Shown: positions 14,037 through 21,362, counted from the stretch's first letter. The stretch: 64,000 nucleotides of DNA from Bacilli bacterium (GCA_017460175.1 JAFUBO010000004.1:23592-87591), one strand, 5' to 3'. The notes: a model not told the origin generated them from the letters alone. A program made the numbers and translations.

Positions 14037-14064
14037 AAAAAAGACTAATTTCTTAGTCTTTTTA
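14037..14064 (-). terminator. Rho-independent terminator after the giant surface-protein gene (AGACTAA-tttc-TTAGTCT + T-run)
   Basis: The hairpin is read directly and overlaps the stop codon at 14062. Confidence 0.55.
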
Positions 14065-17000
14065 TGATCCGTATGAAGTAATTACTTCATTTCTAAATGC
14101 TTCTACTTGTTCTACATGTTCTGTTCCATTATTTGTATAGTAATTATATATATCTTCATTTGTTTGATATGTTTGATACATATATTCAAATCTATGTGTT
14201 ATAGATGAATTTGGTTGAGTTCTATAGAAACGATGTCTATTAAGTAATCCATAGAAGTATGATAATTCATAATCTTCTACTCTATCTTCTTCACTAACCC
14301 CTAAAAGTCCTTCTAAGAACCATGCCATAGTACCAGTTCTATCTGTACCAATTGCACAATGGAAATAAATGTTTTCTCCATTTATTATATCATCTATTGT
14401 AGCAGATAATGCATTTCTAAATTGAGTATAGTATGTTCCATTATTAAATCCTGGTGAAACTTCATAGTTTCTTATTTCTCTAGGTGCATAATTACTTAGT
14501 TTATTATCATTTTGATTTCCACGTAAATCTATTTCTTCAGTAATACCCAGAGTTTCTAATGAAGTAACATCATCACCACTATTTAATTTAGGCCCTCTAT
14601 ACATTCTACCATAATCAATTACACCATCTTTTATACCATCATTATTAGTATCTACTTCAAGTCCTCCAAGATCACGGATATTACGTACTCCACCAGCTTC
14701 AAGAATTCTTCTTTCTCCTTGTACTGTTATTGTACCATATACATTAGTATCACTTGCTAATTCCCAATAGTAAGTTTGTCCTGGAATCATGTCATATATA
14801 ACTCCATCACTAACTGTAACATAATTAACTTGAGTTCCTTTAGCATGTGTTGTGGCATCAGATGTATATACATTTATTGTTCCTGTAACTCCTGTTGTAA
14901 ATCCTTTAGGTCTATCACATTGAACTTCACCAGTTGCAGAACAAGTTTGATAATAATCACTTGCATTACATGATAAACAATTATTATTATTGAAGTTTGT
15001 TTCCATAGAACTTATAAATGTTGTCTCATCATTTTTCCATGTAGAAATATTATTATAATATGTTCTCATTGGATCATTAATAATGTTAAATGTTGAATGA
15101 ATTGGTGTAAAACTCCATTTAGCATAAATTGTCATATCACCTTCTGGTATTGTTGTATCATCTACTGGATTATTATTCTCATCTTCCCAACCATCAAATG
15201 TGTAGGCACCTTTTGTAGGTGTAGGTAAAGCTCCAATAGCGTCTTCTGGTTCTACCATGATAGTTGTAGTAGAAACTGTTCCTCCTTGAGGATCTAAAGT
15301 TATTTTATATTTATTTTGGTATTGTAAATATAATGTTTTATAATCTCCATCAACATCATTAACTTTTTCAGTTCCATCCTCTACTTCACTTATTTTAGTC
15401 TCTCCAGTATCCACTGAAATAGTTGGTGTATTACCAGTGCTAGATGTTTTACCAGCAGGAGCTGTTTTTCCTTTGATAATACCATCATAGAATCTGTATG
15501 TATTGTTGGCAACTAATCCATAAGTTTTTCCTTCAATAACTGGTGTGGTAGCATCAACTGTACCATCTTTTTCACCAATTTCTAAAGTTCCAGATTCATT
15601 ATATATTGCATATAAACCTGTAGAAGTTATTTTACCTCCAGTTATATAAATTTTACCATTAGTTTTATTTTGTATTGCAGCTCTTTGTGTTGATGCATCT
15701 GTAATATTTGTACCTGACGATATATATGTCGTACCACCATCGTTATAAATTGCTTGTCTAGCACCTGCTGATGTAACAGTTAATGTAACATCCTGTAATT
15801 TTAATATAGCATTTGCTTCAACATTAATTGCTCCTTGACTAGTATTAGTAGTAACTGTACCATTAGTAAGTTCTACTGTTGCATTATTTACAACAAATAC
15901 ATTGTTAGTTCCATTATTTGAAACTGTATGATTATTTAAATTTAAATATACATTACGTCCACCATTAAATGTTACTTTTTCACTAGTATCTTTCATTAAT
16001 ACAACTTCTGTTTGTACCCCATTTGTAGTAACTGCTGCAACTGCGTCTGCTAAAGAAGTATAACCAGTAGTTCCTATCATAGCAGTGTAATTACCATCTA
16101 CCCATTTAGCTACATATGTTACATCACTATTTACTATAGTAGTAGCTGGATCAACTTTTGTAGTAAATTTATTATCTGTATACCAACCTTCTAAAATATA
16201 TCCAGTATATTCAGCAGTTGGAAGTTCTCCTACAACCTGACCTTTACCTACATCTTTAGTACTAAAGTAAGCCGTACCACCATTAGCATCAAATGTAACA
16301 GTACATTTTTCTATATATCTAGCATGATATGTTGTATTTGATGTAATTGGTTCTGTTCCATCAATTTTTGTACCACCAGTTTCTTCTGTATACCAACCTT
16401 CTAAAATATATCCTTCTTTTATAGCAATCGGAAGCGAACTAGTTCCAATTATATCTGCCTCTACTACTGGAACAGGATTTGGTGTAACATTTACTGTTCC
16501 ACCATGACCATTAAATGTTACATAGAAAATATGTTTATAATGTGCGTAATATGTTGTGTCAGATGTAATTGGTTCTGTTCCATCAATTTTCGTACCACCA
16601 GTCTCTTCTGTATACCATCCATCAAATACATAACCTTCTTTTGTAGCCGTAGGAAGATTATTTGCACCTACTGTATTACCATCAACAACATCAATTGCAT
16701 TAGGTGTTATAGATACATCTCCACCTTTTCCATTAAATGTTACTAAGAAAATATCTTTATATTGAGCATGATATGTTACGTCAGAAGTTATTATAGTCGA
16801 AGTTTCAACTTTTGTTCCACCAGTCTCTTCAGTATACCATCCATCAAAATAATATCCTGATTTTTCTACTGTCGGTAATTTTCCAACAGCACTACCTCTT
16901 TTTACTTCTTTAGATACAAATGATGCAGTTCCTCCGTGAGCATTGAATGTAATATTATTAACTACAACTGCCTCAGATTCTAACCTTATATACATGTTTG

Positions 17001-21202: not shown

Positions 21203-21334
21203 TTCTTTACACCTCCTCATAATAATAATTTCTGTAAATAGAATATATACGCGTACAATATGCTATCTTCTACTTTACTAATTTAGTATAACAAACATAC
21301 TTGTTTATTTCAATAACTTTGTCGATTTTTGTAG

Positions 21335-21362
21335 AAAAAAAAAGACTTTTTGAGTCTTTTTA
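21335..21362 (-). terminator. Rho-independent terminator after ABC-2 permease gene (AAAGACT-ttttg-AGTCTTT, flanked by A9/T-runs; bidirectional-capable)
   Basis: The hairpin is read directly. Confidence 0.5.

Follow-up and report, generated by a model that had tools for sequence, protein, structure and literature searches.

A conserved five-gene operon with its own SipW-class signal peptidase as a candidate surface-filament system in uncultured gut Bacilli

A 64 kb stretch of DNA from Bacilli bacterium (GCA_017460175.1 JAFUBO010000004.1:23592-87591, about 25% G+C), hereafter the window, carries on its minus strand five genes for two small secreted proteins (P1 and P4), a membrane-tethered protein (P2), a SipW-class signal peptidase and a giant surface protein (Table 1). 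A preliminary description of this DNA had presented the five as one cluster, and mapping of open reading frames (ORFs) placed all of them at the same coordinates, with P1 comprising 184 amino acids (aa) and a stop codon. The ATG at 21202 was preferred as the start of P1 over that of the longest ORF (21220) because it is preceded by AGGAGG. P1 and P2 are separated by 94 nucleotides (nt), the overlap of 8 nt between P2 and the peptidase gene is as first described, and gaps of 7 and 31 nt, neither containing a foldable structure or hairpin, follow between the peptidase and P4 and between P4 and the giant gene. On balance we favour the view that the five make up a single operon whose product is a surface filament reliant on the dedicated signal peptidase.

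Table 1. Features of the five-gene locus. Nucleotide positions are counted from the first letter of the window; aa positions refer to the protein named. Arrows mark predicted cleavage positions. TM, transmembrane.
Feature	Position	Strand	Remarks
Upstream hairpin with U9 run	21333..21360	-	AT-rich; -6.9 kcal/mol, z -1.55; closes the ABC-transporter genes upstream and marks the 5' limit of the unit
Promoter-like site 5' of P1	21285..21313	-	TTGAAA, 17-nt spacer with extended TG, TATACT; consensus match only
P1, putative major fibre subunit, 184 aa	20648..21202	-	first gene; AGGAGG ribosome-binding site
P1 signal peptide, aa 1-25	21128-21202	-	ends T-Y-A↓I-Y-R
P1 flexible N-terminal extension, aa 26-47
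P1 beta-sandwich, aa 48-184
Conserved RNA hairpin, P1-P2 spacer	20556..20616	-	core TTTAAAGYYTATAA-loop-TTATAGRYTTTAAA
Hairpin 5' arm	20598-20616	-	19-mer ATTATTCTTTCGTTTAAAA (= ATTATTCTTTCRTTTAAAR)
P2, membrane-tethered paralog, 240 aa	19831..20553	-	N-terminal TM helix
P2 post-TM strand, aa 50-60	20374-20406	-	GNV(D/N)II(E/D)I then CDxxxKC; highly conserved; GNVDIIEI (aa 50-58) here
P2 linker, aa 67-108			disordered, acidic/basic
P2 P1-like beta-sandwich, aa 110-238	19840-20226	-
Signal peptidase I, SipW class (ER/archaeal type), 159 aa	19359..19838	-	TIGR02228; hydrophobic segments N- and C-terminal
P4, shorter P1 paralog, putative minor subunit or adaptor, 159 aa	18872..19351	-	signal peptide aa 1-25 ends S-Y-A↓L-Y-R
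Giant protein, 1592 aa	14062..18840	-	signal peptide aa 1-29 ends S-Y-S↓I-Y-R
Giant conserved N-terminal strand, aa 30-48			consensus IYRe.k.d.IdLsilDp
Giant Cys-rich conserved domain, aa 118-338
Giant beta-helix-like region, about aa 916-1168
Giant Y_phosphatase3 domain, aa 1383-1565	14146-14694	-	PF13350
Giant phosphatase signature, aa 1494-1502	14335..14361	-	HCAIGTDRT (HCX5R[ST]); P-loop intact
Downstream terminator-like hairpin with U-run	14034..14066	-	AT-rich; -11.6 kcal/mol, z -3.4; 3' boundary of the unit

Homologous loci were sought by scanning one genome per species, which gave 25 loci (L001-L025), all in metagenome-assembled genomes (MAGs) of uncultured Bacilli, 'Erysipelotrichaceae' or Clostridia and mostly from herbivore guts (goat, sheep, rabbit). 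By tblastn and ORF mapping, the order P1-P2-peptidase-P4-giant was found in every locus long enough to contain it, and it is kept in about 20 species-level related genomes in which P1 identity is 42-58%, so that the set stands as a conserved unit. On a contig whose P1 is 56% identical, all five genes recur in unchanged order, the giant one encoding 2005 aa with Flg_new and Y_phosphatase3 domains, and the upstream neighbours differ; further copies of the cluster occur on many metagenome contigs. The terminators said to flank the set are present as hairpins with U-runs, but they are weak and poor in G-C, and a consensus terminator scan detected neither, because each has fewer than three G-C pairs. 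The downstream hairpin overlaps the stop codon of the giant gene and was matched in stability by none of 200 shuffles. As terminators the two are weak, although plausible.

The gene called sipW in the preliminary description does encode a signal peptidase of the SipW class, scoring 70.1 bits against TIGR02228 (cutoff 51.85) and 39.6 bits, below the cutoff of 47, against the bacterial-type model TIGR02227. It is, on sequence grounds, nevertheless no ortholog of Bacillus SipW, reaching 35.4 bits against the equivalog model NF046067, whose cutoff is 190. Its catalytic motifs, GSME (Ser41), THR (His77) and KGDAN (Asp91), are of the Ser-His(-Asp) type and not a Ser-Lys dyad, and are kept in all orthologs of the peptidase. 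The only sequence relatives in the PDB were human SEC11C and SEC11A, with GSME, (T/V)HR and KGDxN all aligned.

Three neighbours of the peptidase gene share a cleavage-region motif. In P1, P4 and the giant protein the N-terminal hydrophobic segment ends in [ST]-[YF]-[AS], followed by [ILM]-[YF]-[RK], and among the ORFs of the window only these three carry the motif near the N-terminus. T-Y-A↓I-Y-R is present in 21-23 of 23 P1 orthologs, P4 orthologs follow the pattern [TS]-[FY]-A↓[ILM]-[FLMY]-R, and giant orthologs read [SAT]-[FY]-[SA]↓I-Y-R, with I-Y-R in 18-19 of 19. The Bacillaceae TasA family has G-G-T-W-A↓A-F-N-D at this point, the TasA chain seen by cryo-EM (PDB 8aur) begins at A28, directly after T-W-A, and hhalign superposed TYA↓IY on the TWA↓AF of TasA. 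Position-wise counts and alignment agree that the signal peptides here have the TasA-like form, T-aromatic-A↓x-aromatic. An aromatic residue in second place behind the cut (P2') is reported as the reason why TasA is a poor substrate of LepB and needs SipW (PMC10269814). Because the motif matches the TasA site and an aromatic P2' residue is reported to require SipW, we infer on good grounds that the operon peptidase cleaves P1, P4 and the giant protein after the small residue, and the proposal of a dedicated peptidase encoded among its substrates is supported indirectly by the motif that all three have in common.

P1 belongs to a large family. Its 338 close homologs are all unannotated, and a HMMER scan with a P1 profile collected 1,426 representative clusters (50% identity) at E<=1e-3. 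No Pfam domain accounts for its members, of which 41 from the wider superfamily were scanned, and no Pfam or NCBIfam model covers the family, whose consensus is TYA(R/I)Y...AKW...GKIAPG...D.TGTEV...W...N..DT.G...IPVT.TA.Q. The AlphaFold2 (AF2) model of P1, with a predicted local distance difference test score (pLDDT) of 81, contains a signal helix, a low-confidence N-terminal extension and an all-beta core. Invariant positions in the extension are I26, Y27, G35, A40 and W42, with no invariant Asn, Asp or Lys, and across the superfamily no Lys, Asn or Glu is invariant. P1 and P4 are paralogs (hhalign 99.2%, E 8e-20), a relationship that the preliminary description did not mention. Several distant P1 relatives (L026-L030) adjoin a SipW-class peptidase gene; others do not. 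A tblastn search of plasmids with P1 gave no match.

P2, introduced earlier as a Lys-rich membrane protein, is indeed membrane-anchored, but that label overlooked a third copy of the P1-type domain. The window protein is 100% identical to a database entry named 'MAG: hypothetical protein [Bacilli bacterium]'. Its residues 97-235 align by hhalign with the P1 superfamily (P1 aa 54-176) at 95.1% and E 3e-8, and a hidden Markov model (HMM) of the mature P1 superfamily matches P4 and every P2 ortholog, the latter at E 1e-7 to 4e-14 and always minus at least the first 20 positions. No SipW-type motif follows the TM helix of P2. P1, P4 and the C-terminal half of P2 are, as their profiles indicate, paralogous beta-sandwich domains, with P2 keeping an uncleavable membrane anchor. 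The linker is modular, being short here and containing two PASTA domains or Big_2 Ig domains in orthologs. The AF2 model of P2, made with database homologs, consists of the TM helix, a short strand, the disordered linker and a beta-sandwich (pLDDT 70 overall, 83-94 in the domain); the short strand covers aa 53-58 at a pLDDT of about 73 and is separated from the sandwich by the disordered linker. P2 was also considered as a lipoprotein and rejected, as its conserved Cys after the TM helix stands in L-H-[NS]-C with no canonical lipobox; it would be membrane-bound either way.

The P1-like domain also occurs in other settings. A distant P1 locus in a JGI metagenome (L029) has two SipW-class peptidase paralogs, at 298-867 and 6599-7087 on the plus strand, and at least six unannotated small or medium ORFs surround its P1-like gene, which hints at more elaborate versions. 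A related metagenome contig (L033) encodes at 4929-7715 on the plus strand a single 928-aa protein in which an N-terminal P1-like domain, with the signal motif, is joined to Flg_new repeats. The 5 kb around this fusion contain no peptidase gene. It is found near PfkB, Smr and a repeat-protein homolog, the same neighbourhood as that of the window operon, and may represent the system in fused or simplified form.

The giant protein was first described as a multidomain surface protein carrying a phosphatase domain, and this was borne out by seven Flg_new (Listeria-Bacteroides) repeats in Pfam, by a PF13350 score of 71.7 bits (cutoff 22.2) and by the intact HCX5R signature. HCX5RT is kept, as HCRIGADRT or HCAIGTDRT, in 13 of 15 complete giant orthologs, and the PDB relative 8dhi aligns over the motif. 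The orthologs range from 1592 to 2196 aa in length. Only the signal peptide and the N-terminal strand-like segment are common to the giant protein and P1/P4, and the mature-domain P1 HMM matched no giant ortholog. LPXTG was absent from all 20 giant orthologs, Pfam recognised no wall-binding or wall-anchor module in the giant protein, and neither the five genes nor the conserved flanks include a sortase. After cleavage, nothing obvious except the conserved N-terminal strand would retain the protein on the cell.

Between P1 and P2 lies a long AT-rich hairpin (-21 to -32 kcal/mol) that is present in all 19 distinct loci and had no place in the preliminary description. In its alignment 98.8% of the cells are paired, six of 18 pairs covary (for example C-G 9, U-A 8), and the alignment outperforms 500 of 500 shuffles and all slid controls. 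The 19-mer of the 5' arm is exactly kept even where P1 identity is no more than 35-58%. The window has a single copy, as has each locus, in every case shortly after P1, and for 32 of 120 exact matches in metagenomes a P1 homolog lies 20-70 nt upstream on the strand that carries the match. The hairpin is more conserved than the flanking coding sequence, and in the window its 3' arm overlaps the Shine-Dalgarno region of P2. Alternative conformations are suggested by the ability of ATTATTCTT to pair with an upstream AAGAATAAT and, in many loci, with a downstream AAGAATAAT as well. G-U pairs are frequent on the sense strand, which favours an RNA structure over a palindrome in the DNA, and because no U-run follows, the hairpin is probably a processing or stability element or a leaky attenuator. 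No Rfam family covers it in a scan of the region.

These features can be combined into a model of filament assembly. The peptidase would cleave P1, P4 and the giant protein and so expose a conserved N-terminal extension on each. The extensions of P1 and P4 would insert as donor strands in the sandwich of the neighbouring subunit and build a fibre, as in TasA, BsaA and the archaeal bundling pili. Domain content would set its polarity: P2, held in the membrane, would be the base, with the PASTA or Ig-like spacers of its orthologs crossing the wall; P1 would polymerise into the shaft; and P4 may be a low-copy adaptor or initiator. The giant protein would be a donor only, like TapA or AbpB, that caps or nucleates the distal end with no need of a sortase anchor, and it is placed at the tip because a donor strand without an acceptor domain fits only an end with a free groove. 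There it would display its repeat adhesin domains and a protein tyrosine phosphatase (PTP)-type phosphatase with an intact active site away from the cell. The hairpin after P1 may keep P1 in high ratio to the downstream products through mRNA processing, stabilisation or leaky termination.

Other explanations of the locus have to be set against this filament model. The adjacency could be coincidental or the genes transcribed independently, the peptidase being a housekeeping enzyme and its neighbours unrelated surface proteins. Promoter-like matches, whose count in the region did not exceed shuffled expectation, were no rarer inside the cluster than in shuffled sequence, and together with the strong hairpin between P1 and P2 this would suit separate transcripts; the 8-nt overlap and the hairpin-free gaps of 7 and 31 nt would not. 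The recurrence of the five-gene order across related genomes excludes chance adjacency. This alternative is already contradicted by synteny, identical in about 20 species and on many metagenome contigs while the flanks differ, and by the cleavage motif, which is carried by no ORF of the 64 kb except the peptidase's three neighbours, and we give the alternative next to no credence. The genes might instead be an orthologous TasA/camelysin biofilm operon whose P1 and P4 are PF12389 members that have diverged past HMM detection and make TasA-type matrix fibres. A TasA profile, made from a TasA sequence that agrees residue-for-residue with PDB 8aur, gave 2% probability against a narrow P1 profile, and against a broad P1-superfamily profile at full length a collinear alignment of 63.6% (P 6.7e-5) pairing APG with KPGD and TAxQ with EATQ. 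Remote homology to TasA was rejected as the meaning of this score, which lies in the signal peptide, because trimming drops it to the level of shuffled controls. The claim that the small proteins are TasA/camelysin-like finds no support in the same comparison of mature domains or in PF12389 (IPR022121), which matched none of P1, P2 and P4 at E<=10 and, at permissive thresholds, neither the distant Clostridia relatives L026-L028 nor any of 41 P1-superfamily members, and which is present in 120 of 120 TasA homologs among the matches listed. Pfam and NCBIfam scans of P1, P2 and P4 at E<=10 likewise returned no camelysin/TasA model and no SipW-cognate signal model. In structural prediction P1 is an all-beta sandwich; TasA, at ranks 28 and 54 (28th in Foldseek), is not one of its leading fold matches and is outside the top 60 for P2. 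The failure of the peptidase against the Bacillus SipW model also opposes orthology. The BsaA/TasA family is extremely divergent in iterative searches, 632 of its 2,172 members matching the camelysin signature in published work, and a distant relationship between P1 and TasA is for that reason still conceivable. We consider orthology to the TasA operon improbable; the small proteins have a beta-sandwich/jelly-roll fold class and a TasA-like export signal, and membership of the TasA/camelysin family is not demonstrated.

A more serious competitor is a secretion and processing module that makes no fibre. Here the aromatic P2' residue would block the housekeeping peptidase. P1, P4 and P2 would not polymerise and would serve as beta-sandwich coat, matrix or binding proteins; the giant enzyme-adhesin would either leave the cell or stay on it through non-specific contacts. 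The common cleavage motif and the dedicated peptidase, the best-supported facts of the locus, speak for such a module, no computed result demonstrates polymerisation, and some of the fold matches are to proteins other than fibre subunits, namely lectins, GOLD domains and collagen-binding domains. It leaves unexplained, however, why the domain comes in three formats (cleaved with an extension, tethered, and absent from a giant protein that keeps the extension) and how an anchorless 1592-aa protein stays on the cell, and the characterised SipW-linked families, TasA, CalY and BsaA, do polymerise. We judge a module of this kind unlikely, if less so than orthology to TasA. Several results nonetheless weigh against the filament model itself. 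Donor-strand exchange and polymerisation are proposed by analogy and domain logic, and the cleavage positions of P1, P4 and the giant protein are predicted. The mature domains of the P1 family have no significant similarity to TasA and match no solved structure by sequence: with signal peptides removed, the TasA comparison fell to 1% probability and scored 18.8, where the highest of 30 column-shuffled controls reached 18.6, and PDB sequence searches with both P1 profiles found no relevant match. The fold matches of P1 and P2 are generic jelly-roll or Ig sandwiches (Z <=7.3); Foldseek gave nothing below E 0.02 for P1, and its top matches, the donor-strand-complemented pilin domains of PapG and FimG, which would suit a filament, are weak and non-significant. 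AF2 pairs the post-TM strand of P2 with a sheet, probably that of its own sandwich, so that P2 may be self-complemented or a strand donor and not a pure acceptor. Some distant P1-superfamily members have no peptidase gene within 6 kb, and the phosphatase, being missing in two of 15 complete giant orthologs, is not obligatory.

The filament model has precedents in Gram-positive bacteria. In tapA-sipW-tasA of B. subtilis and in sipW-calY1-calY2 of B. cereus, as here, an ER/archaeal-type peptidase is encoded among its substrates, and tapA-sipW-tasA and the calY genes likewise have substrates with a T-aromatic-A↓x-aromatic cleavage region. TasA is reported to assemble by donor-strand exchange (PMC9674648), and TapA donates its N-terminus to TasA (PMC10151520). 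The tapA and sipW genes overlap (PMC10151520), the upstream gene running into the start of the peptidase gene as P2 does here, an arrangement read as translational coupling. Bacillus combines a major beta-sandwich subunit with an N-terminal-strand donor, TapA, whose role the giant protein would take. In contrast to Bacillus, the subunits of the present locus are not detectable PF12389 members and the peptidase is no SipW equivalog; there are five genes and not three, the additional ones including the tethered paralog P2 and the small paralog P4; the donor-only protein is a multidomain adhesin-enzyme of 1592-2196 aa, whereas TapA is a 253-aa Ig-fold protein; and the hosts are uncultured gut Bacilli of about 25% G+C. 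The sipW-bsaA-bsaB-bsaC operon of C. perfringens is especially close, having SipW, two remote TasA-like paralogs and a large secreted VWA interaction protein, all presumed SipW substrates. BsaA oligomers are membrane-anchored (PMC11580942) and membrane-associated without LPXTG, which the giant protein also lacks, and regulation of the operon's transcript depends on RNase (Obana 2020; Kiessling et al., PMC11580942). Secretion of BsaC in C. perfringens depends on type IV pilus genes. Here, by comparison, the gene order differs, the dedicated paralog P2 is the anchor in place of a subunit that stays uncleaved for a time, VWA gives way in the large protein to Flg_new repeats and a PTP-type phosphatase, and no conserved N-E-K isopeptide triad as in BsaA is evident in the invariant sequence columns of P1.

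Further parallels come from other kinds of pili. AbpB of Pyrobaculum calidifontis is proposed to initiate a filament by strand donation, its distal domains serving as adhesins (PMC9245690). In the AbpA/AbpB pair, donor-strand-complemented jelly-roll subunits are accompanied by a larger adjacent protein, and the giant protein may have an AbpB-like role; the archaeal locus differs in its host, in having no dedicated peptidase and in showing no sequence relationship. Chaperone-usher pili (Fim, Pap, Csu) resemble the proposed fibre in being polar Ig-like heteropolymers joined by N-terminal donor strands, with a two-part adhesin at one end and subunits specialised for termination at the opposite end, and the top, though non-significant, Foldseek matches of P1 are the PapG and FimG pilin domains. 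In the pap and fim operons, stoichiometry is tuned by a stem-loop that follows the gene for the major subunit. Unlike those systems, there is no chaperone, usher or outer membrane here, and the polarity would be inverted, the adhesin being donor-only where FimH and PapG are acceptor-only. Sortase-assembled Gram-positive pili also encode major, minor and tip-adhesin subunits in one operon, as proposed here, but the present operon contains no sortase gene and its giant orthologs no LPXTG, and linkage would be by non-covalent strand exchange.

The surroundings of the operon contain some further features. Directly upstream, at 21360-23686 on the minus strand, is an ABC transporter pair (a 540-aa permease of the ABC_tran_2 type with a 234-aa ATPase), separated from P1 by the hairpin with the U9 run. 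It was considered as a member of the system and judged unrelated, because the pair is not kept beside the operon in other loci, where the flanking genes differ. The gene at 8980-10890 (minus strand) encodes a 636-aa protein with an N-terminal anchor, in which a unit of about 36 aa (CVKYDGKYYNxDGKVVSYEEYKKSC...) is repeated five times in tandem and the C-terminal half is rich in Thr/Ser; Pfam and NCBIfam offered no credible family for it, and a 49%-identical homolog is found in L033 at 11318-11656. A 391-aa protein encoded at 28666-29841 (plus strand) matches the Pfam family mTERF (PF02536; E 4e-35, 121.6 bits), the adjacent 127-aa ORF at 29841-30224 (plus strand) matches it weakly, and the DNA around both has 17.6% G+C and a reversed GC skew. 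Because the mTERF family belongs mainly to eukaryotic organelles, a copy in a Bacilli MAG is unusual.

The underlying principle is already known, since operons that combine several BsaA/TasA paralogs with a signal peptidase have been pointed out as potential heteropolymer systems. New here are a subunit family that lacks annotation, a paralog tethered to the membrane, a giant enzyme-adhesin that is donor-only and has a conserved PTP active site, and the hairpin, which, lying after the putative major-subunit gene, is a candidate new cis-regulatory element. A bolder proposal, which we hold only tentatively and think rather doubtful as a whole, is that the P1 family is a large unannotated branch of peptidase-dependent fibre subunits and the operon a self-contained, phosphatase-tipped pilus that needs neither sortase nor chaperone, takes its polarity from three domain formats and has its stoichiometry set by the new RNA hairpin. 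To our knowledge, work on SipW-coupled fibres has covered only a handful of cultured Firmicutes (TasA, CalY, BsaA). The locus suggests that the same principle also operates, through an unnamed large protein family, in abundant uncultured Bacilli of herbivore guts, and it suggests a rule for anchoring and capping, given by which paralog keeps the membrane anchor and which partner carries the donor strand alone. If a large PTP-type phosphatase is displayed on a fibre without sortase, this would be relevant to phosphate or phytate scavenging and to attachment to host cells or particles in the gut, and such sortase-free enzyme display would be an attractive scaffold.

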